A DNA stretch of 64,000 nt. Origin: a virus. Below the pieces are notes generated by a model that saw only the letters and a program-made list of their open reading frames with translations, was not told where the DNA came from and did not search any database. The DNA is taken from UHGV virus genome UHGV-1410950. One strand, written 5' to 3'. The position numbers and the translations under genes are program-made. Numbering within the stretch: position 1 is the stretch's first letter; each line of letters opens with the position of its first letter. Positions 11,121-58,746 of the stretch are shown here, one piece after another.

Positions 11121-11150
11121 AAAAAAGCCTCACCTTGGGTTGGTGAGGCT
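11121..11150 (-). terminator. terminator-like hairpin + U7 immediately before the start codon
   Basis: agcctcacc-ttgggttg-gtgaggct with A7 on + (U7 on the minus transcript). The next ATG is at 11119. Confidence 0.5.
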
Positions 11151-11180
11151 ATATTATTACGTCATGGGTGACGTGTCAAC
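11151..11180 (-). promoter_or_regulatory. sigma70-like promoter TTGACA-17-TAATAT with palindromic CGTCA-N4-TGACG spacer
   Basis: Minus strand reads TTGACAcgtcacccatgacgtaaTAATAT. The -35 overlaps the stop of gene 11176..11541. Confidence 0.5.
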
Positions 11181-11541
11181 GGGTCGGCACCACTTCTACA
11201 CCACCGTTGTAGTAGTCGCAGCGCACCCACATCTGAACATCCGGCCTGAACCGCGTCGGGCGCTGGGTTCGCCATCCCTGCCACGCCCCTGACTCACCTT
11301 TTGCGTAAATTTCCAGCTGCCCTACTTCAACCGTTGGCAGGTCACAGGCACGCATCCAGCGATAGTGTGGTTTGGTGCGACGAAGTGCCGGGCCGACCGC
11401 AGTATGCCAGTGGCGCAGCTGTGCCTCTGTCAGATGCTCAGGCCAGCGTGGCAAATCGGAATTCAGATGCTGAGGGTCAATCTGGAACAGGTACGCGTTA
11501 TACGCTGCCTCGCCCAGAGTCATCGCTTTAGCTCGGCTCAT
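11176..11541 (-). CDS. hypothetical protein
   Basis: Start MSRAKAMTLGEAAY, 2 nt after the upstream stop. Confidence 0.5.
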   Translation of the reverse strand: MSRAKAMTLGEAAYNAYLFQIDPQHLNSDLPRWPEHLTEAQLRHWHTAVGPALRRTKPHYRWMRACDLPTVEVGQLEIYAKGESGAWQGWRTQRPTRFRPDVQMWVRCDYYNGGVEVVPTR

Positions 11542-11542
11542 A

Positions 11543-11851
11543 TCAGTACGTCCTGAATCCGTTGCAGTTGCGCAGGAAGTCCACAAAGTCGGCCTTAAAC
11601 TCTTTGGCCCGGTCGGCTTCGGAACTAAACCAGCCCGGCGTCGGCTCCCACGCTTCGATGATGTCAGCCATCTTGCCAGCAGTGCGCGGAGAGACCACCC
11701 ACGGGTCAGTCGTTTTACGCTGCTCTACCTGCGGCAGCTTCGCCATGCCCGGCAGGAATACCAGCGTCCACCACGTACCATTGGCAATGTCATAGCCCGG
11801 CAGACGGTTCTCGTCGCCTTTACGGCGGCGGTCTTCGATAGAAATGGTCAT
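11543..11851 (-). CDS. hypothetical protein
   Basis: 102-aa ORF in a coupled array. Confidence 0.5.
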   Translation of the reverse strand: MTISIEDRRRKGDENRLPGYDIANGTWWTLVFLPGMAKLPQVEQRKTTDPWVVSPRTAGKMADIIEAWEPTPGWFSSEADRAKEFKADFVDFLRNCNGFRTY

Positions 11852-12111
11852 ACAGATTTATCCCCCGTGTAATCAGCCACTACCTTCCCGTTGTTGTCGT
11901 AATACTTGATCTGATACATCGGGTGGCAATTGTGTTTGTGTTTCCCATATTTCAGCTGGTTGGCAAAAACCACATCCAGATTGGCGCTGCCGTTCATCCC
12001 GGCGATGGTGCCGATATCGCCGGAAACCTCAACCATCATCCCCAGCTTGGCGAACGTGATCCCACGCGTGCGGGCCATGTCTTCTTCGAACTGCTTCGCC
12101 TTACTCACCAT
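11848..12111 (-). CDS. hypothetical protein
   Basis: Start MVSKAKQFEE with AGGAG RBS, overlapping the upstream stop. Confidence 0.5.
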   Translation of the reverse strand: MVSKAKQFEEDMARTRGITFAKLGMMVEVSGDIGTIAGMNGSANLDVVFANQLKYGKHKHNCHPMYQIKYYDNNGKVVADYTGDKSV

Positions 12112-12556
12112 CAGCCTGCTCCTTTGCTGGTTCGCGCAGGACACGGGCGTAATGCTCAGCGCGGGCGCAAATGTTGTTCATGCTGCTGCGCTCTTTGTCG
12201 AGCCAGTCAGCCTTGAATGCCGCCTTTTCTTCCTCAGGCAGGACGCTCAGGGCTTTCTCATATGCCCGGCGCTCAGCCATACTACCGATCAGGAATGACT
12301 CGAATACCTCAGCCAGCGCCTCTTTGTCGCACTGCTCAAAGGACTCCCCGACCGTTTTACCGAAGGTCTTCTGGAAAAACTCCTCGGTGCCGCCAAACAT
12401 GAACAGCGGGACTTTGCGAGGCTCAGTCTCAGTGTCGAGCTCAGTTGCGCCATACTGACCGCCCATGATGCCAACGGCGATAGCCGCGAGCTCATGCGTT
12501 GGTGCTTTAAAGGTGATTTTATCTGACAGGTTGATCAGCTCCCAGAGGCTCATGAT
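12101..12556 (-). CDS. hypothetical protein
   Basis: Start MSLWELINL in an ATGA overlap with the upstream gene. Confidence 0.5.
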   Translation of the reverse strand: MMSLWELINLSDKITFKAPTHELAAIAVGIMGGQYGATELDTETEPRKVPLFMFGGTEEFFQKTFGKTVGESFEQCDKEALAEVFESFLIGSMAERRAYEKALSVLPEEEKAAFKADWLDKERSSMNNICARAEHYARVLREPAKEQADGE

Positions 12557-12846
12557 GCTGGCTCCTCTTTTGGTTTGCCTTCGAACTTCTTGCCGCAGAA
12601 TGGGCAATAATTCATCGTCATAAACGAACTGCCATCAGTGCAGCGCTGAGCCAGCGAGCCATCTTTCTTGCGCTTGAGAAAGCGGAAGGTGTAAGGCACG
12701 GTGACGCTGGAGTGGTCGCCATCAGCCAGGACAAACACGCTGTTTGTCCAGTTGGCTTCTTCGATCTCTCCAATTTGATCGCCAAAGCGCTTGGTCAGGT
12801 GCTCTTTGAACTGAGCCCCCAGCTTTTTGAAACAATCACAGGCCAT
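12550..12846 (-). CDS. small zinc-ribbon protein
   Basis: CxxC ... CxxC (MACDCF ... YCPFCG). AAAGGA RBS. Confidence 0.5.
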   Translation of the reverse strand: MACDCFKKLGAQFKEHLTKRFGDQIGEIEEANWTNSVFVLADGDHSSVTVPYTFRFLKRKKDGSLAQRCTDGSSFMTMNYCPFCGKKFEGKPKEEPAS

Positions 12847-12922
12847 CAGGAATCCTTTTAGGGTTGGTTAAATAACCCGTAACGCACCGCGCTACGGGGC
12901 TTTATTGCTTGATGCGTAGTTG

Positions 12923-12950
12923 ATGATACGTTATGCGTGACGTAATGCAA
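12923..12950 (-). promoter_or_regulatory. sigma70-like promoter TTGCAT-16-TATCAT with CGTCACGCATAACG spacer
   Basis: Member of the recurring promoter family. A second CGTAAATAAT element lies just upstream at 12953-12975. Confidence 0.4.
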
Positions 12951-12981
12951 GTATTATTTACGCCACTGCTGACGCATGGAG

Positions 12982-13004
12982 TAAAAAAGGCCCCGTAGGG
13001 CCTT
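12982..13004 (-). terminator. rho-independent terminator after gene 13091..14410
   Basis: aggccc-cgta-gggcct preceded on + by A6. Confidence 0.55.
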
Positions 13005-13090
13005 CAGTTATTTACTGTAAACGGGGCTCAGACCGTGATCTGAGTGCCCGTGTCCTGCTCCCCCGGTCGGGGCATTCCATACCGGGGTTT

Positions 13091-14410
13091 TCACTTTGGG
13101 GCAGTGGTAGGCTTCGGCTCGACCGACGCTGGTTTGCCTGGCTGATTGCGGATCGTGGTAGCCAGCGCTCCCGGTCGCGTCGCAAAGTAGGTGTAACGCC
13201 ATTTCCCGGTCTGGGTCTCCCAGTATTTCACGCGCCAGCCTGAATCCTGATCTTCCCACGCCTCAGAGTAATACGCGGGCTTAGAATCGTTATCAGCATT
13301 GCGCTGCGCGATAGCTGCGGCCTCTCCGGTCGGCTTCCAGCCGTGCAGGTTGATCTCCTCACCTCCACGGTTCTGGATATGGCGCTGGTATTCAGCGCGA
13401 AGGGTGTCCTCAATTCTCGCCAGCTCAGCGGTTGCCTTGCAGCCTGCTGCCGTACAGTAGAAGTGTGTCAGCTGCTCGAAGCGGTCAAAGCCGTTGGTCA
13501 TGTTCAGGAACACTTTGGCCTTGCGGTCATACATCAGCTGGAGGTGTGGCTCCATCCATCCCTGCGTCGGGCGCTCTTTCATGTGAATGTGATACTCAGC
13601 CATTTCTGTCCGGTCGTGCGGGATCACATCCAGGCGGTACAGATAGCCCTGACGCCAGCAGCGCTTGTCTGTACGCAGGGTGCCATCGCTCAGCTCCTCC
13701 TCCGCGAGCTCCAGACGTTTCTCGCTGCCCGGCTTCACATCGGACAGGCCCAGCGAAACACGGCGGTGGACTTCCGCGATCATGCGCTGCGTCGTGTAAT
13801 GGGGTTGCAGGGTGATGACCAGACCGCTGATTTTGGCACGCAGCGGGGCCAGCGGGTGCAAGCGCTTCACCACGTCCTCAATGGTTTCATCGCGCTGCTG
13901 CAAATGCAGCTGCCCGGACTCCAGCGGCTCGTAATCATCAGGGGCGGCGTGATCCAGCGTCAGCTCCGGCTCCTCAACAGCGCGAGCCATCAGCTTTTTC
14001 AGGTCTGGGGTTGGGTTGGCTGGCGCTTCCAGCACTTCCTGAGGCACTACCGGACGCGTACCACGGCCCGCTAATTGCACCCAAGGCTCACCGCCAGAAG
14101 GGAATCGCTCATTCAGATTGAGCACGTACTCAGCATGGGCGAAGGCATCAGCCAGAGTCATCACCGGATCGATATGGATGGTCTTGCCGTCATAAATCAG
14201 GTCAATGGGTTGGTTTTCGGCGACGGCACGGCCTACGGCATTCAGGAGCGCTTCACCTTCTTCGGCATGGAGTTGAGGCACTTCTTGCTGCTGGGCTTTT
14301 ACCATTTCCAGACAGGACATAAATGACTCAGCTTTTGCCTCAGTAAACTTCTCATTGTGCAGGGCGTTAAATACAGCAACAGCGCGGGCAATAACGGATA
14401 ATTTCGACAT
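13091..14410 (-). CDS. hypothetical protein (439 aa)
   Basis: Long ORF with no recognised motifs. Confidence 0.6.
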   Translation of the reverse strand: MSKLSVIARAVAVFNALHNEKFTEAKAESFMSCLEMVKAQQQEVPQLHAEEGEALLNAVGRAVAENQPIDLIYDGKTIHIDPVMTLADAFAHAEYVLNLNERFPSGGEPWVQLAGRGTRPVVPQEVLEAPANPTPDLKKLMARAVEEPELTLDHAAPDDYEPLESGQLHLQQRDETIEDVVKRLHPLAPLRAKISGLVITLQPHYTTQRMIAEVHRRVSLGLSDVKPGSEKRLELAEEELSDGTLRTDKRCWRQGYLYRLDVIPHDRTEMAEYHIHMKERPTQGWMEPHLQLMYDRKAKVFLNMTNGFDRFEQLTHFYCTAAGCKATAELARIEDTLRAEYQRHIQNRGGEEINLHGWKPTGEAAAIAQRNADNDSKPAYYSEAWEDQDSGWRVKYWETQTGKWRYTYFATRPGALATTIRNQPGKPASVEPKPTTAPK

Positions 14411-14429
14411 TAAAGCATCCTTTGTTTAA

Positions 14430-14831
14430 TTAACTTTCTTGAAACAGCTTGTTGATTTCCAGCATTGCGGTACGGATAAAATCGCAGTGCGCTTTATTTC
14501 TTACGAGACTTACGTTATTCCGGCGTTCTAACTTCTTGGCTACCTCCATCACTAATTTCAGGCTCTCCGCGTTTGCATTAATCTCGCATTCGCGTTCTGC
14601 GGTGATCTCTGCCCACTTCTGGCCTACCGGGCGAACATGACGGCGCTCATAACGGTTTCCGCCCTCATACTCCCCGTTATGTTTGTAAAACTTCACGCCA
14701 GCCACAACGAACGTGTTTTTATAGACACGATCAACGGTTATTTTGCGGTACACGTTGAATGTGTGTGAGCCGGGAACATCCACGCGCTCAGTAATTAAAA
14801 CAACATCACCTTTCTTAACATTCTCGAACAT
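14430..14831 (-). CDS. hypothetical protein
   Basis: ATG directly follows a hairpin + U7. The SD (GGAGG) is inside the stem. Confidence 0.5.
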   Translation of the reverse strand: MFENVKKGDVVLITERVDVPGSHTFNVYRKITVDRVYKNTFVVAGVKFYKHNGEYEGGNRYERRHVRPVGQKWAEITAERECEINANAESLKLVMEVAKKLERRNNVSLVRNKAHCDFIRTAMLEINKLFQES

Positions 14832-14862
14832 AAAAAAAGTCCTCCGCTTGTGGGGAGGACTT
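14832..14862 (-). terminator. terminator-like hairpin + U7 abutting the start codon
   Basis: agtcctcc-gcttgtgg-ggaggact with A7 on +. Confidence 0.55.
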
Positions 14863-14888
14863 TAGCGCGTTATCTTTTTTGACGCAAG

Positions 14889-14917
14889 AATTATTTACGG
14901 CATACGTGACGCATCAA
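14889..14917 (-). promoter_or_regulatory. sigma70-like promoter TTGATG-17-ATAATT with CGTCACGTATGCCG spacer
   Basis: Minus strand reads TTGATGcgtcacgtatgccgtaaATAATT. Overlaps the stop of the ParB-methylase gene. Confidence 0.4.
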
Positions 14918-16425
14918 AAGGCATCGTCATCTTCATCAGGATCCGGCAGGTGCCGATCCTCGGTCTCCTCCGGGAATTCCTCTCCGGTGTAGAAGTGGAC
15001 GGCCTTGCGCCCGGTAAGGTTCTGCCAGCGACGAATCGCCACATCTGCGAATCCCAGATCCAGCTCCATCACGCGTGCGCATACGCCCATTCGCTCGGCG
15101 GCCACCAGTGAAGTACCAGAGCCGGAGAAGGGATCCACCATGATGTCATTGAGGCGCACGGTGTTCTTCATCATGCGCTCCCACAGCTCCACGGGCTTCT
15201 GCGTCGGGTGCAGGTCGCTGCGGTCAGGACGCGGCACGCTGACCACGCTGCCCAGCATTGACTCCACCTTGGCGTCGCCTTCCACCCGCATGATGAGATC
15301 GCCGTACTGGAAATACCAGTTACCCTCGGCATCCTGTTTGAATGGGCTTGAGTCGCCAAACTCCGCGACGGTCGTTTGCTTCCTGCCACCGTGCCAGCGG
15401 TGCTTGGCACCCTTGCGCCAGCCGTACAGGATTGGTTCATGGATGCTTTGGAAGTCAGCCATGCCCAGTGTCATGCTGTTCTTCTTCCAGATGACATTCT
15501 GGGAGAAGTGGAAACCGACCTTTTCAAACGCCCAGCGCAGGCCATGGGCCATCTTGTCGGAGTGGCTGATATAGGTCACGCCGCCCGGCTGCATCGCGTC
15601 ATAGGCGCAGCTCAGGACATTGACGAGGAACTGATTAAAGTCCTCCTCGTTTTTCCAGTCGTTAGCGATCCCGCCAGTGCGCGAGCGCTCGCCTCCGATA
15701 GCCTTATCCATGCGCTTATTCTTCTTGCCCACATCGACGTTATACGGGGGATCGGTCAGCATCATGTTGGCCTTCTCGCCCTGCATCAGCGCCAGCCAGC
15801 TTTCCGGCTGCTCAGCATCACCCACGTACAGGCGATGAGCGCCCAGCACCCACAGGTCGCCCGGACGGCTCTTTGGCTCATCAGGCAGCGGTGGGGCATC
15901 ATCAGGATCGCTGTCACCACCTCCTCCCTCCATCGGCGGCAGCTTCATGATCTCGTCCAGCTGCTCAGGGTCGAAGCCGATAACATCCAGATCGTAGTCC
16001 AGATCAGCCAGGGCATTCATTTCGATGCGCAGCATGTCCATGTTCCACTCGGACGCCCGGCCCAGCTGGTTATCCGCGATGATGTACGCGCGGCGCTTAG
16101 CCTCATCCCAGCCAGTGCAGTCCAGCGTCGGCACCATGCCAATAGGGATCGGCGTGCCATCCGGGAAAGCAATTTGCTTGCCCTCGCTGTACAGCTTCAT
16201 CGCTGCCAGCTGGCGTCCATGGCCTGCCACAATCCCTTGCTCATCGACGAGGATGGCATTAGTCCACCCGAATTCAAGCATCGACGCGGCGACCTTCTGG
16301 ACGTGTGCCGGGCTATGGTCATTTGAGTTGTTCACGTAGGGGATGAGGCTATCAACCGGGCGCAGCCGGATCATCGGGGGGATCACGTCCAGCCCCAGCA
16401 TCTTGTTAAAATCTTTATCAGCCAC
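14914..16425 (-). CDS. ParB-like nuclease domain fused to a DNA N6-adenine/N4-cytosine methyltransferase
   Basis: N-terminal ParB/Srx motif (GHGRQLAAMKL). Methyltransferase motif IV DPPY precedes motif I FSGSGTS, the beta-class order. Confidence 0.85.
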   Translation of the reverse strand: MADKDFNKMLGLDVIPPMIRLRPVDSLIPYVNNSNDHSPAHVQKVAASMLEFGWTNAILVDEQGIVAGHGRQLAAMKLYSEGKQIAFPDGTPIPIGMVPTLDCTGWDEAKRRAYIIADNQLGRASEWNMDMLRIEMNALADLDYDLDVIGFDPEQLDEIMKLPPMEGGGGDSDPDDAPPLPDEPKSRPGDLWVLGAHRLYVGDAEQPESWLALMQGEKANMMLTDPPYNVDVGKKNKRMDKAIGGERSRTGGIANDWKNEEDFNQFLVNVLSCAYDAMQPGGVTYISHSDKMAHGLRWAFEKVGFHFSQNVIWKKNSMTLGMADFQSIHEPILYGWRKGAKHRWHGGRKQTTVAEFGDSSPFKQDAEGNWYFQYGDLIMRVEGDAKVESMLGSVVSVPRPDRSDLHPTQKPVELWERMMKNTVRLNDIMVDPFSGSGTSLVAAERMGVCARVMELDLGFADVAIRRWQNLTGRKAVHFYTGEEFPEETEDRHLPDPDEDDDAF

Positions 16426-20071: not shown

Positions 20072-20548
20072 TTAATCCTTGAAAAAAGTTACCCAGTGGG
20101 TGTTTGCCCGGATGCCGGACGGATGACCGAAAGCGGGTTTCATTTCCGCCAGTTTGAGCAGCTCGCGGGTTGGCACATGCAGCTCATTCCATTTGAAGAT
20201 CAGCGTGCCGTGCGGCTTGAGCACGCGCCATGCCTCAGCGAATCCGGCGCGGATGTCATCGCGCCATGTCTTCTTGTTCAGGATGCCGTACTTCTTGCCC
20301 TGCCAGCCGTTTGGCCCGCACTTGAGCAAATGAGGCGGGTCGAACACGATGAGGCTAAACGTGGCGTCGGCAAACGGCAGCGCCCGGAAGTCAGCCACGA
20401 TGTCGGGATGGATTTTCAGCTCCCGGTCATCGCATAAGATATGCTCCTCGTCCCGGATATCCATGAAGACGACGCGGGGATCCTCCCGGTCGAACCAAAA
20501 CATGCGCGAACCGCAGCACATGTCGAGAATGGGTTTGTTAGTGGTCAT
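20072..20548 (-). CDS. small SAM-dependent DNA methyltransferase
   Basis: Motif I LDMCCGSR and motif IV VFDPPH. Confidence 0.7.
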   Translation of the reverse strand: MTTNKPILDMCCGSRMFWFDREDPRVVFMDIRDEEHILCDDRELKIHPDIVADFRALPFADATFSLIVFDPPHLLKCGPNGWQGKKYGILNKKTWRDDIRAGFAEAWRVLKPHGTLIFKWNELHVPTRELLKLAEMKPAFGHPSGIRANTHWVTFFKD

Positions 20549-21648: not shown

Positions 21649-21678
21649 AGTCTGCTCCTTACGTCATATGCGACGTTG

Positions 21679-24498: not shown

Positions 24499-24778
24499 TC
24501 TCGCGGTCTCCTCGCATTGCCAGAATCATATCGTGTGCGAACTCGGCACCTTCCAGCGTCTTGAGATACTTCTCAGCTTTTTCCTGGTCGAATTCATCAA
24601 ATACCTTATCGCGGTTGCCTTCGCCCACTTCCCCCTCAGGGAATGAGAAACCCATATCCAGCTCAGCATCCTGAGCCATAACAATCAGGGACAGCTTTGG
24701 GCGGTCGTCATCATCGAATGACTTCTTAACGAGCAGCTGGCGACCGTGCGCCTCGAATACTTTTGCAAAACGTTCCAT
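24491..24778 (-). CDS. hypothetical acidic protein
   Basis: Start MERFAKVF with AAGGA RBS. The track's N-terminal extension would overlap the promoter. Confidence 0.5.
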   Translation of the reverse strand: MERFAKVFEAHGRQLLVKKSFDDDDRPKLSLIVMAQDAELDMGFSFPEGEVGEGNRDKVFDEFDQEKAEKYLKTLEGAEFAHDMILAMRGDRENG

Positions 24779-24851: not shown

Positions 24852-24873
24852 TAAAAAAGCCCCCGCAGGGGCT
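24852..24873 (-). terminator. rho-independent terminator after the Eib-like gene
   Basis: gcccc-cgca-ggggc with A6 on +. Confidence 0.6.
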
Positions 24874-26228: not shown

Positions 26229-26444
26229 TTAGCGCGGGATGAATGGCTTCTGGGTGAAGACCTCAGCCTGAGGGAAGTCAAAAGAGACCTCCGGTGCCAT
26301 TGCCTGAGAAGGCAGTGACTTGATGTGCTGGGATCCATCTGGCAGGAATACGCCAGCAAGGTAACGCGGCACCTGAATGACGTTTGCAGCCAGTGCATAG
26401 CCCGGTGGTGCTGCGGGATTAACGGTATCGTCGATTGTAGCCAT
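26229..26444 (-). CDS. hypothetical protein
   Basis: ATG directly follows hairpin 26449-26475. SD (GAGGG) in the stem. Confidence 0.45.
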   Translation of the reverse strand: MATIDDTVNPAAPPGYALAANVIQVPRYLAGVFLPDGSQHIKSLPSQAMAPEVSFDFPQAEVFTQKPFIPR

Positions 26445-26489: not shown

Positions 26490-26711
26490 CTACCTCCGGC
26501 GATTAATCTCATGGTACAGCGCAGCCATAAAAATACCGATGGCGACGGGCCAGCACAGCATGACCATCAGCAGCGTCTGGGGTGGCATCTTCTTCCCGGC
26601 GATCCCCATTTTGTCTGAGATGAAGTCAATCATGATAACTGCTGCGCCTATCAGCAGCGCGACAGCACCGTACACTTGCAGCTTCTCCAGCCAGAATTCA
26701 CTCACTGCCAT
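26490..26711 (-). CDS. small two-helix membrane protein
   Basis: Two hydrophobic segments. Confidence 0.5.
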   Translation of the reverse strand: MAVSEFWLEKLQVYGAVALLIGAAVIMIDFISDKMGIAGKKMPPQTLLMVMLCWPVAIGIFMAALYHEINRRR

Positions 26712-26899
26712 GGCTCCTCATACCAGGTGGAAAGCGCCACATATGCGGTGACGGGCCAGAGCGCCGCCTGAATGAGCAGGAAGCCCACGGCTTTACGCTT
26801 CGGGTGCATACGCGGCACCCATTTGCGCAGGCCCAGCAGCAGCACCACTAAAAAGCCAGCCCAGTACAGGGCCAGCGATACGATGATTTCAGTCTGCAT
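26702..26899 (-). CDS. small two-helix membrane protein
   Basis: Two hydrophobic segments. Confidence 0.5.
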   Translation of the reverse strand: MQTEIIVSLALYWAGFLVVLLLGLRKWVPRMHPKRKAVGFLLIQAALWPVTAYVALSTWYEEPWQ

Positions 26900-31064: not shown

Positions 31065-32721
31065 TGGTCTTCTCTTTCGCGTTGATAGCGTTGATATGCG
31101 ACTGCACCAGCGCACGGATAGCCGCCATGACAGGAACAGGCGGACGGTTCAGCTTATCGCCGCACAGGTCATCAATCGCGCCGATGATAGCCCGGTCGGC
31201 GTTGCGCTCGGTCATCACGGTGCGCAGCAGCTCGTCGTGTTTGTGCTGGGCGACGGACAGGCCCTTGATGAACGTGTACAGCTCAGTAACGTTGTCGCGC
31301 CAGTCGTCTTTGACTTCCAGCTCATAGTTGCCGATCAGTGTGGCGATTGCGTTGCGCGGCGCGTTGAATTTCTCCTCCAGACGGTTAGCCAGCACCTCCC
31401 ACGGATGGTTGGCATATGGCGCGGCGTCGGTTGCTGGGCTATCCCACTCTACCAGCTCACAGATGCGGTCATGCAGGATCATGGCACCGCCGCGATAGCG
31501 GGTGATGGTGTTCACGTAGTCACGGATGCCGATCAGCAGCTCAGGGAGTGACGGCAGCATGTCAGGGGTGGACGGCTGAATCATGCAGAGCGCCATCACT
31601 TCGCGCTTGAATGGGTCAAGTGTAGTCTGCGATGACCGGACGCTGGTCAGGTCGTTAGCCAGCTTGGTGACGAGCGCCGGAAGCTCTTTCGGATTTTCGA
31701 CGACGACGCCCAGCACGCGCTGGATATCTTTCAGGGTGCAGTATGCAGTGTCACGCTCGCCGCGTGCTAGTGCCAGCTCCTGATCAGCTTTAGCCAGCTG
31801 GCCTGCGGTCTCTTTGTTGGCTTCGCGGGACTGGCGCAGATTGTCGAACAGCTCCGCCGTGATGGCAGGCAGATCGCCGTATTCGTAGTCCGGGTCAACC
31901 TCCAGAGAGGTGCGGATGTCGTGCAGGATGGTTTTGCAGTCAGCCAGATCAACGGTGGCATCTGCCAGCGCGTTGGTGCGCTCGGTCAACAGGTCGGCAT
32001 TCTCTTTGAAGTTGCGGACGTAGGTCAGCAGGCTGCTCGGCGTTGCATCAAGCTTGCCAGTGATACTGCGCAGCTCGTTGATGATTTTGGTGTGCTCACA
32101 GGCGATCTTGGCGCTTTCGTCAGCCCTGACCTTAACTGCCATGACAGCAGCCACCGGGCCGCTACTGGTCGGGATCATGAAGCGCTCGCGCAGCTGGCTG
32201 ATAGCTTCGCTGTGCTCATTCAGTGCGTGATCCGCCTGGCTGAATTTGGCTTGCAGTTTTTCATGTTCTTGCACGACTACGCTGGCAATCATCTGAGGGT
32301 CGGATGACTTGATGCTGAACTTTTTGCCGATGACGTTAAGCGCCGCACGCAGCGAGTCGCAGGTATCGCGCAGGTCTTTCTCGCGGTCAGTCATTTCAGC
32401 AGGCGCTACGGCTCGCGGGTCTGTTTGAACCACTGTAACGGGTTGCCCTTCCATGGGGTAACGCAGCTGAATTGAAGCGCCTTTGATAAACAGGTCTTCG
32501 GTGTCGATGTGCGCAGCCATGTTCAGCAGTGCGCAGACGCGCCGGGCGATCACTTCCTCAGACGGTGGCACGCCGCTGTTTTCCGGGATAGTGATGATTG
32601 ACTCGATGGTATCACCGCCGCCCTGTGCATGGGGCATACGGATAGCAATGTCGTGGATGCCGCCGATGAGGCGCGTGGTGTACATCGGGGCAGATGGGTC
32701 GGGTTTGATAAGCATTGCCAT
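31057..32721 (-). CDS. hypothetical coiled-coil protein (554 aa)
   Basis: Long ORF, helical/coiled-coil rich. Confidence 0.6.
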   Translation of the reverse strand: MAMLIKPDPSAPMYTTRLIGGIHDIAIRMPHAQGGGDTIESIITIPENSGVPPSEEVIARRVCALLNMAAHIDTEDLFIKGASIQLRYPMEGQPVTVVQTDPRAVAPAEMTDREKDLRDTCDSLRAALNVIGKKFSIKSSDPQMIASVVVQEHEKLQAKFSQADHALNEHSEAISQLRERFMIPTSSGPVAAVMAVKVRADESAKIACEHTKIINELRSITGKLDATPSSLLTYVRNFKENADLLTERTNALADATVDLADCKTILHDIRTSLEVDPDYEYGDLPAITAELFDNLRQSREANKETAGQLAKADQELALARGERDTAYCTLKDIQRVLGVVVENPKELPALVTKLANDLTSVRSSQTTLDPFKREVMALCMIQPSTPDMLPSLPELLIGIRDYVNTITRYRGGAMILHDRICELVEWDSPATDAAPYANHPWEVLANRLEEKFNAPRNAIATLIGNYELEVKDDWRDNVTELYTFIKGLSVAQHKHDELLRTVMTERNADRAIIGAIDDLCGDKLNRPPVPVMAAIRALVQSHINAINAKEKTNG

Positions 32722-33691: not shown

Positions 33692-33827
33692 GAGAAAACT
33701 CTCACCCGTTCGTCTTAGTCGAGCAGAGTATAGCGCTTTTTTGAGGTGATGGAAGCCGTGACGGCTTGGTACAGCGTGTTGCAGTGCGAAAAAGTGGAAT
33801 TGTCACAGAAAAATAGCCAGACAGAGC

Positions 33828-33896
33828 CACATAAATAAATAAATAAATATAAATAAATTATATAGTTAGTTAGTAGTAGTAGTAAGTGTCTGTGTT
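33828..33896. repeat. microsatellites (AAAT)n and (TAGT/TAG)n inside a 515-bp AT-rich noncoding region
   Basis: aaataaataaataaatataaataaatt then tagttagttagtagtagtagtaag. Confidence 0.8.
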
Positions 33897-34156
33897 GTGC
33901 TGTGACTGTGTTACGGCTGTGACGGTAAATCTATACCATTACGCGACTCAGGATGCCTATTACAGTATATCAATATCCTTACAGTAATTATTTTATTACT
34001 CTATAGGGGTATTTCTTTAGTTCTCTATATCTCCCTCGCATTTTTACTGTCCCACCGTCACAACTCCCACGCAAGCCGCGTCATTGCTGGATTTTTTGCG
34101 TTACTCAGGCACTGACACAGCAACTGGTGCAACTGTCCCCGCGTCACAGAAAAACC

Positions 34157-34180
34157 AAAAAAAAGCCCGCTTGCGCGGGC
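34157..34180 (-). terminator. rho-independent terminator after the Cro/CI-like gene
   Basis: gcccgc-ttgc-gcgggc preceded on + by A8. Confidence 0.65.
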
Positions 34181-34206
34181 ATTATCATTACTCTGTAACG
34201 AATTAA

Positions 34207-34628
34207 TTAAAAGTAGTCATCTTCCGCCTCGCCGATGGCCTCGCGTATTTTTTTCATGGCCTCCTCGGCTGATTTTAAGTTAAGTATTACATCGTCACGA
34301 TTATATTTCGGTTGGTTGTCCTGCACATCGCGCATGAGCCTCAGCATTGCGTTGGCACCGCGCACGAATTTATCCGTGTATTCCCCTTCGACTTTGGTCA
34401 GGTCAACGCTAGGGTTGAGGGTCAGCAGCATCGCCTCAAAGCGCTCATTGTTGACCTCAGGGATTTCCATCGCAGGCACGCGGCGTGCAGATACCAGGAT
34501 GCGCCCGGCGATAACCTCGGCGTCGTTCTTAATCCACTGGTGAACCTGCGGGGCATGAACCTTGAGCGCTCGCGCGAATTCAGTCTTATTGTCAGCGTAG
34601 TAGAGCGCGATATAGGTCGAGAGTTTCA
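34207..34628 (-). CDS. Cro/CI-type helix-turn-helix regulator
   Basis: Start MKLSTYIALYYADNKTEFARALKVHAPQVHQWIK (helix-turn-helix) with GAGGAAA RBS. The track ORF has a 52-aa spurious extension. Confidence 0.65.
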
Positions 34629-37288: not shown

Positions 37289-37418
37289 AAGTACCTCTCT
37301 TAATAAAAATTGGCACATTGCCCCATGCGTTGCCACGGCTTGCATCGCCTTTCCCGGCCAGAGCATACCGCTCCCGGCAAAATATAATTACATCGCTATA
37401 TCCACGCTCACATGAATA

Positions 37419-37720
37419 TAACGCTGTATTAGCCCTTACCTCACCTTACCTCACCCTACCTCACCTTACCCTGCCATACCCGACCTCTGCTTTACTTCGC
37501 TATGCGCCCAAATCAGACGCATAACGCTGTATTAGCCCATGCCGCACCCAACCTCACCCTACCATACCCCACAAAGCCGTACCCAAACTTTACTTCGCTT
37601 TACCCCCGCGAACAGAGGTAAAACGCTGTATTAGCCCTAGCCTCACCCCTCCATACCGTGCCGTGCCTGACCGAACCGGGCCTTACCTCGACTTTATTTC
37701 GCTTTCAAATTTAATATAAT
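37419..37720. repeat. three tandem ~101-bp direct repeats (noncoding)
   Basis: Each unit starts with ATAACGCTGTATTAGCCC (37419, 37521, 37621). A ~55-nt C-rich, G-poor core follows with CCTCACC/CCATACC motifs. Each ends with ACTTTACTTCGCT. Confidence 0.85.
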
Positions 37721-38924: not shown

Positions 38925-39443
38925 TTATCGTTGCAGCAGCAGGTCAACCTGCCGTTTCAGGGCGGAGATCTCCCAGTCCTTTTCCTCAATCGCTTTATTC
39001 TTCTCGGTCAGCACCTGACGGCACATTTCATTCAGTTTGAGGACATCCTGCCTGACGCCTTCGATTCTGGCGTCGCGCTCGGCTACCTTGCAGCGTTCGA
39101 GGTGGAGCGCCTCGCAGGTTTTGCTGTGCGCATCAATCTCAGCTTTATAGGCTAGCTTAGTGGTCTGGTGATCTTCCTCTGATTTTGTCAGGGCCAGCCG
39201 CAGGCGCATCAATTCCAGCATATCGTTGCCGCCGAAACTAAACGGATCCTGATAGCTGTGCTGCGTGCGGCGATATTCGCGCTGCTCAGGCTGAACCTTT
39301 GCGCCGGGCACGTTGATAGTGCGCAGGTCGATCCCGGCCTGATTGGCATAAGCCACGGCACGACCGAAAGCCGTTGCGGCTTCCTCTTTGTTCGTGGTGC
39401 CGTAGGCCAGCGCCAGCAGCTTTTCAATTTTCGCCCTACTCAT
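38925..39443 (-). CDS. DUF2786-like N-terminal domain protein with coiled-coil C-terminus
   Basis: N-terminus MSRAKIEKLLALAYGTTNKEEAATAFGRAVAYANQAGIDL matches the DUF2786-type motif. Confidence 0.5.
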   Translation of the reverse strand: MSRAKIEKLLALAYGTTNKEEAATAFGRAVAYANQAGIDLRTINVPGAKVQPEQREYRRTQHSYQDPFSFGGNDMLELMRLRLALTKSEEDHQTTKLAYKAEIDAHSKTCEALHLERCKVAERDARIEGVRQDVLKLNEMCRQVLTEKNKAIEEKDWEISALKRQVDLLLQR

Positions 39444-50444: not shown

Positions 50445-50786
50445 TTATTTTGCTTTCTTTTCTTCTCGCTCTTGGCGCAGGAATTCCCCGCGCTGTTCGT
50501 CGGTCATGCTTTCCAGCATATCCCGGCGCTCCTGCTGAGCGGCTTCTACTTTTACCAGCTCGTCGATAAAGAGATCAACGACCATGATGGATTTCGGGAT
50601 GCGCTCGAACCAGCGATCCGGTGTAGAGCGGCTAACGCCAGCTCGACGGCAGAGCTCAGCAATAGAGATACCGCAGGCATCAGCACGTTTGCGGATGTCT
50701 TTAATCCTCAGGTCGAAGTCCTCAGAAAACGAGCGTTCGAACTCAGGCGCTTTAACTGGGGGCTTAATGCCTTTTCGTGGTGCCAT
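50445..50786 (-). CDS. helix-turn-helix DNA-binding protein
   Basis: ACGISIAELCRRAGVSRSTPDRWF helix-turn-helix. First gene of the leftward replication operon. Confidence 0.6.
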   Translation of the reverse strand: MAPRKGIKPPVKAPEFERSFSEDFDLRIKDIRKRADACGISIAELCRRAGVSRSTPDRWFERIPKSIMVVDLFIDELVKVEAAQQERRDMLESMTDEQRGEFLRQEREEKKAK

Positions 50787-54532: not shown

Positions 54533-54808
54533 ATGCTGACTAAAGCACAAATCGTGGAACACATCGCCAAAGAGCAGAATATCACCAAGTCACAGGCTGA
54601 GCGCTTTTACAGCTGCTTCACCCAGCTGGTGACTGATACCCTGAAAGCTGGCGAAGAAGTAAAACTGAATGGCGTCGGCACGCTGAAAGTGGCTGCGCGT
54701 GCAGCTCGTACCGTGCGCAATCCGGCTACTGGTGCCCCTCTGGATATCCCGGAAACTCGTACCGTGAAGTTTTCTGTAACCAAAGACCTGAAAGACGCGC
54801 TGAATTAA
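54533..54808 (+). CDS. HU/IHF-family DNA-binding protein
   Basis: MLTKAQIVEHIA ... VKLNGVGTLKV ... RNPATGAPLDIPETRTVKF, the classic HU fold sequence. Confidence 0.9.
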   Translation: MLTKAQIVEHIAKEQNITKSQAERFYSCFTQLVTDTLKAGEEVKLNGVGTLKVAARAARTVRNPATGAPLDIPETRTVKFSVTKDLKDALN

Positions 54809-54879: not shown

Positions 54880-55245
54880 ATGCTCAGGAAAGATGTTGTG
54901 CAGGTGCTGGAAGGGCTGGCGAAGGATTTACCGCCCCCTCCGACGCCTGAGGAAGTCCGCAAGATCCGCGCCCGGCACGCTGGGCACATCAGCCCGGTAA
55001 CGGTCTGCGAATGTGGGTGGAGTGACTTTTTTCACCGCATGGGGTGCCGGAACCAGACGGACTTTCTTGATAATACCGGGCATCAAATTAAATGGCTGTT
55101 CCTCGCGCACGATGGCCCGTTAGAAGGCAGCGGCAGCAGGATTATTGAACACGGCGTCCATTTTTGTTTCACGGGAGATAACGATGCAATTCACCCAGAC
55201 TCAGGGGTCAGCGATCCAGCAGGTAGCGAAGTGGGCAAACAGTAA
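54880..55245 (+). CDS. hypothetical protein
   Basis: 121-aa ORF. Overlaps the start of the helicase gene by ~59 nt. Confidence 0.45.
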   Translation: MLRKDVVQVLEGLAKDLPPPPTPEEVRKIRARHAGHISPVTVCECGWSDFFHRMGCRNQTDFLDNTGHQIKWLFLAHDGPLEGSGSRIIEHGVHFCFTGDNDAIHPDSGVSDPAGSEVGKQ

Positions 55246-56296
55246 GGGCGGGCCTCAGGTCATGCGTCTGTTTGGCTACGCGGGAACCGGGAAAACGACC
55301 GTTGCCAAAGCTATCGCTGAGGAGGTCAAAGGCACCGTACTGTTTGGCGCGTTCACGGGGAAAGCCTCGCTGGTTATGCGTAAGAAGGGCTGCATTAACG
55401 CCAGTACGTTGCACAGCCTGATCTACAAACAGGATGAAGACGCGCTGCCGGGGCCGCATCCTAAGTTTATCCTTAACCCTGAAAGCTCCCTCAATTACTG
55501 CCGCCTGCTGATTGTCGATGAATGCTCAATGGTCGGCCCTGACCTCGGCGCTGACCTCCTCAGCTTTAACCGCAAAATTCTGGTGCTGGGCGATCCGGCA
55601 CAGCTCCAGCCAGTCAACGGCGAGGGCTATTTCTGCGCTCCCGGCGTCCGTCCTGACATTATGCTCACTGAGGTTCACCGCTCGGCGGCTGAATCGCCCA
55701 TCATCCGGCTGTCTATGGACTTGCGCGAGGGGCGTCGCCTACAGTACGGCACCTATGGTGACAGCTGCATCATTGAGCGCAAGCACCTCGGACAGCGCCG
55801 CGTGCTGGAATCTGACATCGTGCTTTGCGGCATGAATAAAACCCGCATCAACCTCAATGAGAAGATCAGGAAGCTGAAAGGGGTTGAGAGCCAATTCCCG
55901 GTGGCTGGCGATAAGCTGATTTGCCTCAAAAACGACAAAGAGCTCCAGATGTACAACGGCTCGATCTGGACGGCGAAGCACGCCGCAGAGCCAGACCGGA
56001 ACGGGCTGGTAATGCTCACAGTTGAGACCGAAGACGATCCGACCGTTGATTACCCGGTTGAGGTCATGGTACCGGAGAAATTCTTTCTGGGCCGCGAGAA
56101 AGAGCTCCACTGGACTGAGTTGCAGGGCATCCAGCAGATGTACTACGGCAACGCGATCACCTGCCATAAAGCGCAGGGCTCAGAGTGGGAGCATGTTGTG
56201 ATATTCGACGAGGGCGGGATCTTTAAACAGGATGCGTGGCGCTGGCGGTATACGGCGATTACACGCGCCAGCGAGCGGTTTACCTATATTATGTGA
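55187..56296 (+). CDS. Dda/RecD-like superfamily 1 (SF1) DNA helicase
   Basis: Start MQFTQTQG with GGAGATAAC RBS. Walker A GYAGTGKTT. VDECSMV. C-terminal HKAQGSEWEHVVIFD. Confidence 0.8.
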   Translation, partial: QFTQTQGSAIQQVAKWANSKGGPQVMRLFGYAGTGKTTVAKAIAEEVKGTVLFGAFTGKASLVMRKKGCINASTLHSLIYKQDEDALPGPHPKFILNPESSLNYCRLLIVDECSMVGPDLGADLLSFNRKILVLGDPAQLQPVNGEGYFCAPGVRPDIMLTEVHRSAAESPIIRLSMDLREGRRLQYGTYGDSCIIERKHLGQRRVLESDIVLCGMNKTRINLNEKIRKLKGVESQFPVAGDKLICLKNDKELQMYNGSIWTAKHAAEPDRNGLVMLTVETEDDPTVDYPVEVMVPEKFFLGREKELHWTELQGIQQMYYGNAITCHKAQGSEWEHVVIFDEGGIFKQDAWRWRYTAITRASERFTYIM

Positions 56297-56560
56297 TTAC
56301 ATGCCTTGGCTGGCTATCCAGTCAGCCTTATTCTTGTCCCGCGTGGCACAATCGCCGTACATGCCTAACAGGTCAGAATATGCCTTATACAGCGTCCCCA
56401 TGTTTTCTCCGGGGTCGAGGTCTACGGCAGGGCAGGTAACGCGCAGCGATTCGCTCATGTGTGGCTTGGCCTGATCAACGACAACCTGCGTCGCCGGGCG
56501 AGGCTTATCGCTACAACCAGCGATAAAAGTCAGGGCGGCCACCAGCATCAGTTTTTTCAT
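56297..56560 (-). CDS. o-spanin (outer-membrane lipoprotein of the lysis cassette)
   Basis: Lipobox LTFIAGC. Follows the i-spanin with a 4-nt overlap. Confidence 0.55.
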   Translation of the reverse strand: MKKLMLVAALTFIAGCSDKPRPATQVVVDQAKPHMSESLRVTCPAVDLDPGENMGTLYKAYSDLLGMYGDCATRDKNKADWIASQGM

Positions 56561-57018
56561 TTTGATGCCTCCGCAGGAACTACGCCGATGAATTGCGCGT
56601 TGATATCCCGTGTCTTATTGAGCAGGATCTCACGACCAGACGGGGGGAGTTTACAGTCGGTATAGACTGTCTTTTCGGTCTCTTTCTGAATGGTGTTGTT
56701 GTAGGTCTTGTTGACGATCTGGATGTTGTTCAGCGCGGTGAGGAAGTTTTTCTCCACGATCTGAGCACGATGCTCAGCATCAATGCGCCGGGCCTCCTTC
56801 TCCTGTAAGGCTACGTTCTGAGCATCAATCAGGGCCTGACGTTCCCCCGCCATACGTAGCGCTTCGGACTCCGTACCCGATTTAAACCCAAAATAAAGAC
56901 CGGAACCGCCAGCGCCCATCATTGCGATAAGGCAGGCGACTATTAGCCATGGGACGGCTTTTGTTCTAACGACTGCGGCACCCGCAATCTCTACCGTTTC
57001 TTTCAGTGGATTACTCAT
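56557..57018 (-). CDS. i-spanin (Rz-like)
   Basis: N-terminal transmembrane segment, then a coiled-coil periplasmic domain. Confidence 0.55.
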   Translation of the reverse strand: MSNPLKETVEIAGAAVVRTKAVPWLIVACLIAMMGAGGSGLYFGFKSGTESEALRMAGERQALIDAQNVALQEKEARRIDAEHRAQIVEKNFLTALNNIQIVNKTYNNTIQKETEKTVYTDCKLPPSGREILLNKTRDINAQFIGVVPAEASK

Positions 57019-57473
57019 TGGATTATCCTTAGGTTTACAGGTGGCAAAATAACCACCGTGTCACCGTTGATAATACCGTCACGGAAACTTACAGTGCTTC
57101 TGATTCTGTAGTCTCCCACAGGAAGATCAGGCATAACGAATGCGTAAGATTTCAGATGGCACCCACCATCAGTAAGGATATCTAAAGATGGTAGCGGGAA
57201 AACAGTGCCTTCAGGCGAGACCAGCGCCGGGGAGGCACTGAGTTTTAACTTGCCCTTTACGCAATACAGCCGCTCAATTCTGACCTCATCACCAGCCCTG
57301 AAATTCATGGATTTTTCGCCGTGAGCATCCAGCGGCTCAGTGCGCTTTACCGTGAACGTCGCTGTGTCAGTAAAGATGTAAAACCATCCCCCGGCAAGAA
57401 AAACAGCCAGGACGAATAGGTATGTAAGGGCTCCTACTAGCGCCCTCCTGTGCTTGCAATTTCTGGTCGTCAT
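57015..57473 (-). CDS. membrane-anchored protein in the lysis cassette
   Basis: N-terminal transmembrane segment LVGALTYLFVLAVFLAGGWFYIF. Confidence 0.45.
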   Translation of the reverse strand: MTTRNCKHRRALVGALTYLFVLAVFLAGGWFYIFTDTATFTVKRTEPLDAHGEKSMNFRAGDEVRIERLYCVKGKLKLSASPALVSPEGTVFPLPSLDILTDGGCHLKSYAFVMPDLPVGDYRIRSTVSFRDGIINGDTVVILPPVNLRIIQ

Positions 57474-57682
57474 TTAATGATCACTTTTGCCAGTACAGCC
57501 ATCATGACGGATGACAGGACAGCGGTTGCTAAACCGTAGGCGATCAGTTTTACAGGCGTAAATTCTTCACGGGTGATCTTTTCTTTGACCAGATTCTCCA
57601 GTGTCGATACCTTCTCCTGTAACCGAACCACGTTCATATTTAGCTCAGTAATTTTTTTGATGTCATCGGAGTCTAGTGCCAT
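57470..57682 (-). CDS. small C-terminally anchored membrane protein (lysis-associated)
   Basis: Coiled-coil N-terminus. C-terminal transmembrane segment LIAYGLATAVLSSVMMAVLAKVII. Confidence 0.45.
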   Translation of the reverse strand: MALDSDDIKKITELNMNVVRLQEKVSTLENLVKEKITREEFTPVKLIAYGLATAVLSSVMMAVLAKVIIK

Positions 57683-57688
57683 CGCTAA

Positions 57689-58399
57689 TCACTCAAAGTA
57701 TGGAATATATTTAGCACGGCGAACATGAATAATGTTCGATACGTACTCTCGGTTTATTCTGAAAAACGACTGACCATAGCCCTGCTTTGGGGTTTTGGAT
57801 TTCAGGCTGTACCGCTCGACGTGGTTCCACCAGCGGGACGAATCGCAGCCCCGCGTGTTGGCGCACAGACGGCGATCCTGTAGCACTCCACCCTCTCCAC
57901 CGTTGTAAGCACTCAACGTGAAGGCCAGCCGCTCATCAGCGTTAGCCGCTCCTTTCTGGCGGCTGAAAATGGCTTTATCCATTTCCACGATGGCTTTGAG
58001 TTGATAGTCGGCGTCATATCGGTTCTCCCAGCTCCAGCCCCTCAGGCTTTTGTGGGCCGCAGCCAGCTCGCTGATCTTGTCGAACCTGATAGAGCCATCT
58101 TTATTGTATGCGCGGGTGAACTGCCCCAGACCGATCCCGTTCTCCCGGCTTGTTTTGAGCTCAGCACGCGGATCCCAGCATCGTGAATGTTTCAGGGTGA
58201 TGCAGCTTTCCTGCTCAATCTGCCCCGCCAGAAACGATGGCATCGGGGCGTCGGGCCAGATGGTGCGCTGGGCCTGCACCAGATCCGGCAGATACTTTTC
58301 AGCCTTTGGCGGCACACTGGCGCGGGCATCCTCCAGTGAAACCACAAGGGCAATCACCAGCGCGAACCAGACAGCCGTTAACGCCCAGAGCCGTCTCAT
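57689..58399 (-). CDS. endolysin: signal-peptide/signal-anchor lytic transglycosylase
   Basis: Start MRRLWALTAVWFALVIALVVSLEDARA (ARA cleavage-site-like). EQES ... GIGLGQF transglycosylase motifs. TGATG coupling to the holin. Confidence 0.65.
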   Translation of the reverse strand: MRRLWALTAVWFALVIALVVSLEDARASVPPKAEKYLPDLVQAQRTIWPDAPMPSFLAGQIEQESCITLKHSRCWDPRAELKTSRENGIGLGQFTRAYNKDGSIRFDKISELAAAHKSLRGWSWENRYDADYQLKAIVEMDKAIFSRQKGAANADERLAFTLSAYNGGEGGVLQDRRLCANTRGCDSSRWWNHVERYSLKSKTPKQGYGQSFFRINREYVSNIIHVRRAKYIPYFE

Positions 58400-58716
58400 G
58401 CCTTGGCCCACGTCACAAGAGACAGGATGAGCAGCCCTACGAAAAGCAGTAGCCCGGCGACGACGATCCCAGCTGCCTTATTTCCCTCATGTGCTTCCCT
58501 GAGGAGCCTCGTCAGCTCGATCTGGGGGAACATCATTCGGGAAACGATGACAGCCAGCCCGGTGATAACAGGCGCGACAAGAAGCCACTGGACGACCGTA
58601 ATGGTCATGGCCTTGTCGATAAACCACAGGATGATAAAACAGGGGAGGATCATCAGTAATGCGGTCTTATCGACCAGCGCCCGCAGGCGTTTGACGATGG
58701 ATTGTAAAACAGTCAT
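58396..58716 (-). CDS. holin (three transmembrane segments)
   Basis: 106 aa with three hydrophobic helices, immediately upstream of the endolysin. Confidence 0.6.
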   Translation of the reverse strand: MTVLQSIVKRLRALVDKTALLMILPCFIILWFIDKAMTITVVQWLLVAPVITGLAVIVSRMMFPQIELTRLLREAHEGNKAAGIVVAGLLLFVGLLILSLVTWAKA

Positions 58717-58746
58717 AAAAAAGCCCTCATACGTTTGTATGAGGGC
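58716..58746 (-). terminator. terminator-like hairpin + U6 abutting the holin start codon
   Basis: gccctcat-acgtttgt-atgagggc with A6 on +. SD GAGGG is in the stem. Direct repeat TAAGACTG x2 just upstream. Confidence 0.5.

Follow-up and report, generated by a model that had tools for sequence, protein, structure and literature searches.

The four junctions and their genes

The DNA analysed here is a 64-kb stretch (the window) out of the roughly 95-kb genome of the phage UHGV-1410950; most genes of the window lie on the minus strand. At four minus-strand gene junctions of the window, a GC-rich hairpin followed by a run of Ts stands directly before a start codon, and the Shine-Dalgarno (SD) sequence of the gene that begins there lies within the 3' arm of the hairpin. 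The downstream genes, all on the minus strand, are at site 1 a gene of 72 amino acids (aa) with a ParE-like toxin domain (10901-11119; PF24732, E 1.8e-16), which has no obvious antitoxin partner adjoining it, at site 2 a 133-aa gene with no function assigned (14430-14831), at site 3 a 71-aa gene (26229-26444), and at site 4 the gene of a 106-aa holin (58396-58716; phrog_8226), which opens the lysis cassette and is followed by the endolysin gene (57689-58411, minus strand; phrog_669). The genes upstream of the sites include a ParB-methyltransferase gene and, before site 4, a tail fibre gene (58774-61131, minus strand; phrog_6921). Upstream stop codons are separated from the stems by 25, 50, and 27 nucleotides (nt) at sites 1, 2, and 4, respectively, and by 13-15 nt at site 3.

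The four sites are 92-100% identical to Escherichia phage ECML-606-1 (OL631484) and Enterobacter phage phiT5282EW (PQ352032), with which the window shares about 97% identity across a 4.4-kb stretch, and in whose annotation nearly all genes are hypothetical. Remoter relatives, recognized by their primase and holin, are Yersinia phage fHe-Yen8-01, Aeromonas phage ST4, Morganella phage Mecenats66, and Bordetella phage PHB04. Searches of IMG/VR with the holin, the 133-aa, the ParE-like, and the 71-aa proteins as queries found the phage group represented by the same two contigs; the ParE-like query also retrieved about 80 unrelated contigs, mostly of 5-50 kb, which are without the hairpin and possibly prophage-derived. 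Each of the downstream open reading frames (ORFs), for which an earlier note on this DNA had said that a non-coding status would count against its reading, has an ortholog in fHe-Yen8-01 with the same ATG start (54, 35, 44, and 74% identity at sites 1-4); all four are genuine genes.

Proteins were annotated by PHROGs and Pfam scans, which covered about 50 proteins of the window, including 30 from the early region. Among the early-region proteins, the scans gave only two hints of regulators, a weak helix-turn-helix in a 113-aa protein (50445-50786) and an HU/TF1-like protein (54533-54808). No Rfam family reached its gathering score across the whole window, no tRNA or tmRNA was found in it, and there was no sign of an alternative antiterminator fold, of a leader peptide, or of a ligand-binding element. 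A literature search found no paper on transcription or its signals in this phage group.

Terminator-like hairpins with a buried Shine-Dalgarno sequence

The four-site pattern is real and non-random. An objective scan of the window required a perfectly paired stem (6 bp or more, at least 4 of them G-C), then four to eight Ts (T4-8), and, 0-4 nt further on, an ATG that opens an ORF of 45 or more codons. It returned four matches, precisely the four sites, while the same scan on 200 dinucleotide shuffles gave a mean of 0.09 matches and a maximum of 1. The stems comprise 7-10 bp with 5-6 G-C pairs, the loops 4-9 nt, and the T-runs directly 3' of the stems are T7, T7, T5, and T6 at sites 1-4, with the ATG 0-4 nt later.

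Read on the minus strand, the hairpin of site 1 is AGCCTCACC-aacccaa-GGTGAGGCT (11150-11126), with its 5' arm at 11150-11142, its loop at 11141-11135, and its 3' arm at 11134-11126; the latter contains the SD sequence GGTGAGG (11134-11128), and the T-run extends to 11120, immediately before the ATG at 11119-11117. Site 2 has the same layout, with the hairpin AAAGTCCTCC-ccacaagc-GGAGGACTTT (14863-14836), the SD sequence GGAGG (14845-14841), a T-run to 14832, and the ATG at 14831-14829. At site 3, (GG)AGCCCTC-agacataac-GAGGGCT(TT) spans 26475-26453, or 26477-26449 when extended, and harbors the SD sequence GAGGG (26459-26455); its T-run, the weakest of the four (T5, then ACCC), precedes an ATG at 26444-26442. 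At site 4, the holin gene begins with the ATG at 58716, just after the hairpin GCCCTCATAC-aaac-GTATGAGGGC (58746-58723), in which GAGGG (58728-58724) is the SD sequence, and the T6 run at 58722-58717. The hairpin energies at sites 1-4 are -16.4, -15.2, -13.5, and -20.3 kcal/mol, with z-scores against shuffles of -5.9, -4.2, -3.7, and -7.8. By the criteria of a GC-rich stem and a U-tract, the hairpins look like canonical intrinsic terminators.

At all four sites the SD sequence is located 7-10 nt 5' of the ATG. Its predicted accessibility (0.01-0.18) is lower than at any other of the 25 gene starts that, out of 94, are the most structured, and on RNAs initiated upstream (-70..+20) the SD and AUG are predicted to be masked, with an SD unpaired probability of 0.02-0.19 at the four sites. 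The earlier note had described these hairpins, with the SD in the 3' arm and the ATG after the T-run, and had proposed that the SD is sequestered on RNAs bearing the complete stem; the description is confirmed at every site, and the proposal is supported.

Promoter-type motifs overlapping the 5' arm

Two recurring promoter-type motifs were found when the minus-strand intergenic regions were read throughout. Class 1 is sigma70-like, consisting of TTGACA or TTGCGN, 16-18 nt, and TAnnnT, and usually comes with a CGTCAC-N4-TGACG palindrome; it occurs at sites 1 and 2. Class 2, TCGTGAY-NN-nAnA(A/C)T, stands before the hairpins of site 3 and site 4 and before a 2251-aa gene, and it is also present 5' of structural genes in ECML-606-1, fHe-Yen8-01, ST4, and PHB04.

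The class 1 motif of site 1 (11179-11151, minus strand) joins a -35 element, TTGACA (11179-11174), through a 17-nt spacer to a -10 element, TAATAT (11156-11151). With a 10/12 match, it is the best sigma70 match within the first 20 kb; its -35 element includes the stop codon of the upstream gene (TGA, 11178-11176), and its spacer holds the palindrome CGTCACCCATGACG (11173-11160). At site 2, TTGCGT (14887-14882) is followed after 17 nt by TAAAGT (14864-14859), which covers the first 5 nt of the 5' arm (whole motif 14887-14859, minus strand). A further match lies upstream of it on the same strand, TTGATG-16-AATAAT (14917-14890; 9/12), with the palindrome CGTCACGTATGCCG at 14911-14898. The palindrome and the hairpin-overlapping promoter are conserved in fHe-Yen8-01 and in the IMG/VR contig 3300011855, in contrast to the -35 and -10 elements of the upstream match, whose status as a promoter is doubtful. 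The promoters that the earlier note had placed at 11151 and 14889 fare differently, the former being the strong match of site 1 and the latter this unconserved one.

At site 3, the motif GTGACGgCATACT (26490-26478, minus strand) ends in the hexamer CATACT (26483-26478), and at site 4, TCGTGATGtAAGACT (58761-58747, minus strand) ends in AAGACT (58752-58747). The site 4 motif is unchanged in six relatives and also precedes the holin gene in ST4 and PHB04. Each site has a -10 hexamer abutting or overlapping the 5' arm, which speaks against limiting the expression of the downstream genes to read-through or antiterminated RNAs, as the earlier note had done.

The motifs and the hairpins stand in a fixed register. 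A distance of 5-10 nt separates the end of the promoter match from the last base of the 5' arm in 12 of 12 modules (window, fHe-Yen8-01, and ST4), with a background probability of at most 0.018 for a promoter match per 10-nt window; over 15 modules, the distance from the end of the hexamer to the ATG is 26-36 nt. As an internal control, coding-strand perfect hairpins with at least 5 Ts in the window and in fHe-Yen8-01 were split according to whether a start codon follows within 0-4 nt. An abutting promoter was present at 9/9 of the hairpins with an immediate start codon versus 0/18 of the others (Fisher ~2e-7), and the SD-in-stem layout is thus specifically tied to the nested promoter. Several of the 18 others show the conventional succession of terminator, promoter, and leader (e.g., at 24873, 21732, 13003, and 332), and some have no nearby promoter and an ordinary SD sequence 14-21 nt downstream (18248-18226 in the window; 6967, 8156, 61646, and 74370 in fHe-Yen8-01). 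As no promoter is near these latter terminators, the expression of the genes behind them depends on read-through.

Predicted start points and RNA folding

The class 2 motif offers a calibration of the start point. In PHB04, the annotated ATG is at +7/+8 from the end of the class 2 hexamer in at least seven genes (the portal gene at 39176, and genes at 20517, 4718, 34449, 25654, 57999, and 14037). The same spacing is found in three ST4 genes and in the orthologs of an adaptor-like gene in ECML-606-1 (27248), phiT5282EW, and fHe-Yen8-01 (10896), the N-terminus of which is conserved starting at that very ATG. The simplest reading is that the class 2 motif yields leaderless mRNAs beginning 7 nt past the hexamer; the usual distance between a sigma70 hexamer and the start is likewise 7 nt. 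At this distance, the predicted start points (+1) of sites 1-4 are A11144, C14852 or A14851, C26471 or T26470, and A58740, which lie within the final 0-4 nt of the 5' arm or on one of the first two positions of the loop.

Folding predictions differ markedly between the two kinds of RNA. Read-through RNAs (-70..+20) fold with -15 to -29 kcal/mol and leave the SD unpaired with a probability of 0.00-0.34, while the values for RNAs beginning at +7 are -1 to -6 kcal/mol and 0.34-0.95. The truncated leaders of sites 1-4 (from 11144, 14851, 26470, and 58740) have energies of -2.6, 0, -3.2, and -0.7 kcal/mol, no better than those of shuffles.

Conservation of the junctions

All four junctions are orthologous in fHe-Yen8-01, where the upstream genes match too, and the order of promoter, hairpin, T4-8, and ATG is kept, which agrees with the earlier note's view that the arrangement is systematic. 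The stem of site 1 is wholly different in that phage (AATGCCCTT versus AGCCTCACC in the window), and a perfect TATAAT overlaps the arm. At site 2, the top of the stem differs and TTGCAT-17-TATAGT occupies the same register, which validates the weak match of the window as a candidate promoter. At site 3, TCGTGACGaTATCCT abuts AAGCCCTCA. A fifth module of fHe-Yen8-01, at gene 132, the ortholog of window gene 595-1023, has a full hairpin, T5, and ATG. The holin hairpin is invariant in close relatives and shows one compensatory change, G-C to A-U, in fHe-Yen8-01. ECML-606-1, phiT5282EW, and two IMG/VR contigs, all 92-100% identical to the window at the sites, differ from it there in loops, in T-run length, and in one compensatory pair, too little for statistics.

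Beyond this order, the elements of the junctions are not always kept together. The holin gene of ST4 retains the motif together with an unrelated SD-masking hairpin and no T-run, and that of PHB04 retains the motif with a terminator hairpin and the SD outside the stem. In the IMG/VR contig 3300011855 (L019 1468-1503), ATATT replaces the T-run of site 1 and the stem, AATATAGCCTCACC/GGTGAGGCTATATT, has 14 bp and reaches up to the ATG, so that by its sequence the SD mask is kept and the terminator character is lost. Taken together, these comparisons suggest that the nested promoter and the masking helix form the conserved core, and that the terminator is an add-on, gained or lost from case to case.

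A proposed nesting of promoter, terminator, and ribosome-binding site

We regard it as fairly probable, with ample room for doubt, that each site is a module of nested promoter, terminator, and ribosome-binding site (RBS) that insulates the downstream gene from upstream transcription. A polymerase coming from the upstream gene would transcribe the entire inverted repeat, and the hairpin with its U-run would terminate most transcripts; the surviving read-through RNAs would keep the hairpin, with the SD buried in its 3' arm, and would yield little protein. The module's own promoter would initiate about 7 nt past the hexamer, at the end of the 5' arm or the beginning of the loop. Because the predicted +1 falls inside the hairpin, the 5' arm of which the hexamer abuts or overlaps, this RNA would lack the 5' arm and would have neither a terminator nor a masked SD. 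Its leader would measure 20-27 nt and have an open SD, with the former U-run as the spacer between SD and AUG.

Several points weigh against this proposal. Promoter activity and the +1 positions, and with them termination and any temporal logic, are predictions from DNA sequence. The statistics rely on promoter patterns whose definition was in part post hoc, made when the sites had already been seen, and the sites are not independent, since the four of the window and four of those in fHe-Yen8-01 are orthologous pairs. The promoter matches are weak at site 2 (TTGCGT/TAAAGT), site 3 (CATACT), and site 4 (AAGACT), and no factor for the TCGTGAY motif was found in the PHROGs and Pfam scans of the 30 early-region proteins. 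SD accessibility in the short RNAs is predicted to be merely moderate (0.35-0.6). In ST4, the hairpin downstream of the motif at 1562 begins 6 nt past the hexamer, and the whole stem might be transcribed there. Lastly, covariation in the stem of site 4 is minimal, the one compensatory pair being equaled in 84 of 500 shuffles.

The earlier note took the hairpins for intra-operon attenuators, with expression restricted to read-through or antiterminated RNAs on which ribosomes or a phage factor open the hairpin. We consider this unlikely, and the insulation module largely replaces it. The anatomy is that of canonical terminators and the SD is masked on full-length RNA, as attenuation would have it; however, an abutting promoter accompanies all nine SD-in-stem terminators and not one of the other 18. 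Read-through-dependent expression does occur in this family, at promoter-less terminators before genes with an ordinary SD, and the 14917-14890 match at site 2 would give an RNA with the entire hairpin. Melting of the hairpins by ribosomes that finish the upstream gene, which the note had suggested, is disfavored by the position of the stop codons, which at sites 1, 2, and 4 place the stems outside the reach of a terminating ribosome, site 3 being borderline. As to a phage factor, no Q- or N-like antiterminator, sigma factor, or clear repressor was found among the approximately 50 proteins scanned, a weak negative given that most of them are unannotated and that the scan left out about 45 genes. 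A damping of lysis gene expression from the RNA of the structural operon would be plausible at site 4, as both flanking genes are late, but relatives that lose the T-run and yet keep promoter and hairpin are hard to square with control of termination as the core function.

It is improbable, more so than attenuation, that the TCGTGAY-NN-hexamer motif of sites 3 and 4 is an RNA-processing site, at which a cut about 7 nt downstream would free the SD and would make the leaderless mRNAs. The fixed distance of 7-8 nt to the ATG indicates a 5' end, not how that end is made, and the failure to find a motif-recognising factor in the early-region proteins is in keeping with processing. The motif, however, ends in a -10-like hexamer with conserved A2 and T6 (nAnAAT / nAnACT), as is typical of recognition by the sigma70 family, it is confined to the coding strand upstream of gene starts, and its position is interchangeable with that of the sigma70-like promoters of sites 1 and 2; moreover, a terminator upstream of the cut would still keep most RNA from the gene. 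Very improbable is a role of the inverted repeats as DNA, in which they would be operators of dimeric proteins or hairpin/cruciform promoter elements of the N4 type, the RNA hairpin and SD overlap being incidental. The repeats do abut -10 elements, where a bound protein could control initiation, and the phage has other palindromes (CGTCA..TGACG) that are probable operators. Yet it is pairing, T-run, and ATG distance that are kept, while stem sequences vary among sites and orthologs; loops range over 4-13 nt, the 3' arm is always an SD sequence at proper spacing, and no N4-like virion RNA polymerase was evident in the protein scans.

Comparison with known systems

The closest parallel is found in phage T4, where the genes e (lysozyme), soc, 49, and I-TevI are present on long RNAs with an SD-masking helix, and a late promoter in the DNA of its 5' strand gives a translatable RNA (PMC3014915). 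As proposed for the modules, upstream RNAs are SD-masked and RNAs from the internal promoter are free, and one of the T4 cases also concerns a lysis gene. The T4 genes are characterized by a +1 that lies inside the 5' strand of the helix or past it, and for the modules such a position is a prediction. Unlike in T4, the helix doubles as a canonical intrinsic terminator, with the U-run as SD-AUG spacer, and two promoter classes, sigma70-like and TCGTGAY-type, take the place of the T4 late promoter TATAAATA. These phages are also unrelated to T4, and each genome has 4-5 terminator-type junctions in addition to several that lack the T-run. At site 4, the T4 rationale of early versus late expression is not obviously applicable, because tail fibre and holin are both expected to be late.

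In the lambda pR'-tR' arrangement, RNA from a promoter situated well upstream takes in the terminator as a whole (6S RNA), and transcription beyond it requires Q. The junctions share with it a promoter near a terminator ahead of late or lysis genes. They differ from it in that the -10 element abuts or overlaps the 5' arm, so that the module's own transcript would be without the full stem. The earlier note had likened sites 1 and 2 to pR'-tR'. At site 1, TAATAT ends at 11151, directly before the first base of the stem (11150), and for this reason the complete stem cannot be part of this promoter's transcript. For site 2, the likeness would hold only if the unconserved 14917-14890 match fires.

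With intra-operon terminators and attenuators, the junctions have in common a GC-rich stem and U-run between co-oriented genes and an expected reduction of read-through RNA; the SD in the stem and the overlapping promoter set them apart from ordinary intra-operon terminators, which coexist with them in these genomes. Promoter-terminator coupling is reported to be widespread across bacterial genomes, and it resembles the modules in the physical linkage of the signals by which neighbouring genes initiate and terminate transcription (bioRxiv 10.64898/2026.08.19.745784). The mobE gene of phage Aeh1 has an RBS-sequestering hairpin (Gibb and Edgell 2009, cited in PMC3014915) and, as far as that citation goes, is similar in that the hairpin masks the RBS of a gene reached by upstream transcripts; the citation implies neither a terminator function nor a family of nested promoters.

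It is quite possible, if somewhat short of probable, that a group of myoviruses of about 90-95 kb, the relatives of ECML-606-1, phiT5282EW, and fHe-Yen8-01, routinely builds transcription units from such nested modules of 50-60 nt, with a modified form in ST4 and PHB04, and that it possesses a promoter class, TCGTGAY-NN-nAnAAT, which gives many leaderless mRNAs and implies a phage-encoded specificity factor. If so, the modules would represent a distinct and general solution to gene insulation, not an isolated T4-like curiosity, in which three signals that are usually serial share one stretch of 50-60 nt and insulation is achieved at two levels, transcription and translation, at almost no cost in genome length. 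The lysis cassette would then have a promoter of its own and be decoupled from the highly expressed structural operon. For genome annotation, a terminator right before a gene should not automatically be taken for an attenuator or an operon boundary, and the modules might be usable as ultra-compact insulator parts in synthetic biology. The analysis also exposes an uncharacterised promoter class and a probable operator system in a poorly annotated phage group.

Related modules and other sequence features

Four further minus-strand modules of the window have a promoter-type motif and a hairpin that masks the SD, and no T-run. The one of the 2251-aa gene (9221-9174) consists of GTCGTGATGcCACACT, with its hexamer at 9211-9206, and the hairpin GGCCATTATTC/GAATGGTGGCC (9204-9180), which contains the SD sequence GGTGG. 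This gene probably starts at the ATG at 9176-9174 rather than at the first ATG, 9188, because GGTGG precedes the former and no SD sequence precedes the latter. The ORF (2433-9188) has no PHROG match, and its fHe-Yen8-01 ortholog is annotated as a virion-associated ADP-ribosyltransferase toxin. In the module of a 554-aa gene (32776-32722), TTGCGA-17-TATCGT (32776-32748) abuts GGGCTC..GAGCCC, which includes the SD sequence GGAG, and the ATG is at 32721. A weaker module precedes gene 595-1023 (1088-1033); its TTGACC-17-TATTAT (1088-1060) abuts CTCAG (1059-1055), which pairs with CTGAG (1037-1033) within the SD sequence TGAGGA. The fourth promoter-abutting, SD-masking hairpin lies at about 36883-36821.

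Two candidates for additional terminator-type sites were rejected. The hairpin at 24876-24855 is followed by ATTATG, the ATG of which opens no gene; it is a terminator in the conventional order, with TTGTTG-17-TATAAT, a leader, and the ATG at 24777 after it. The GTG after the hairpin at 26876-26855 is intragenic and was not retained as a gene start. This hairpin (8 bp, T5) lies inside a 65-aa ORF (26702-26899), about 20 nt past its start, and is conserved in ECML-606-1 and phiT5282EW. Either the coding sequence happens to form it by coincidence or it is an intragenic terminator.

The CGTCAC-N4-TGACG palindrome occurs in or next to at least eight sigma70-like promoters, all of them intergenic and facing genes, with minus-strand copies at 36874-36861, 26119-26106, 14911-14898, 12942-12929, 11173-11160, and about 1075-1062, and near 21670 and 24835. 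It is probably the operator of a phage regulator. Its position is upstream of the -35 element at site 2, as for an activator, and in the spacer at site 1, as for a repressor; the equivalent in fHe-Yen8-01 is CGTCTAAT-N2-GACG. Copies of TCGTGAY-NN-nAnA(A/C)T are found in the window at 58761-58747, 26490-26478, 9221-9206, and 21470 and in ECML-606-1 at 34488, 33082, 27267, and 16323, and the motif has many copies in fHe-Yen8-01, ST4, and PHB04. A C/A-rich leader, (C)ACCAACCCAAGG, recurs just 5' of the SD in several promoter-proximal leaders (11143-11131, and about 36853-36841, 24807-24790, and 12862-12850) and in fHe-Yen8-01 loops at 72373, 76942, and 85616; it forms the loop of the site 1 hairpin, and might enhance translation or just be a leader without structure.

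A small hairpin, GACTG-ttcc-CAGTC (58773-58760), directly follows the stop codon of the tail fibre gene and overlaps the start of the holin promoter motif; read on the plus strand, it resembles a weak terminator. At the same place in ECML-606-1 (7570-7557), the sequence is GACCAG-tc-CTGGTC, with compensatory changes that keep the pairing. Two non-coding regions stand out elsewhere. The region at 33692-34206, about 500 nt long and following a strong terminator (34180-34165), is AT-rich with simple (ACT)n and (ATTT)n repeats, and could be an origin or a packaging region. In the gap at 37367-37719 (353 nt), a unit of about 95-100 nt stands three times in direct repetition; the copies are 69-76% identical and rich in GGTAAGG/GGTGAGG-like pentamers, and each of them ends with GGGCTAATACAGCGTTAT in the minus-strand reading. 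The gap might be a region of the iteron or origin type, or else an RNA array.

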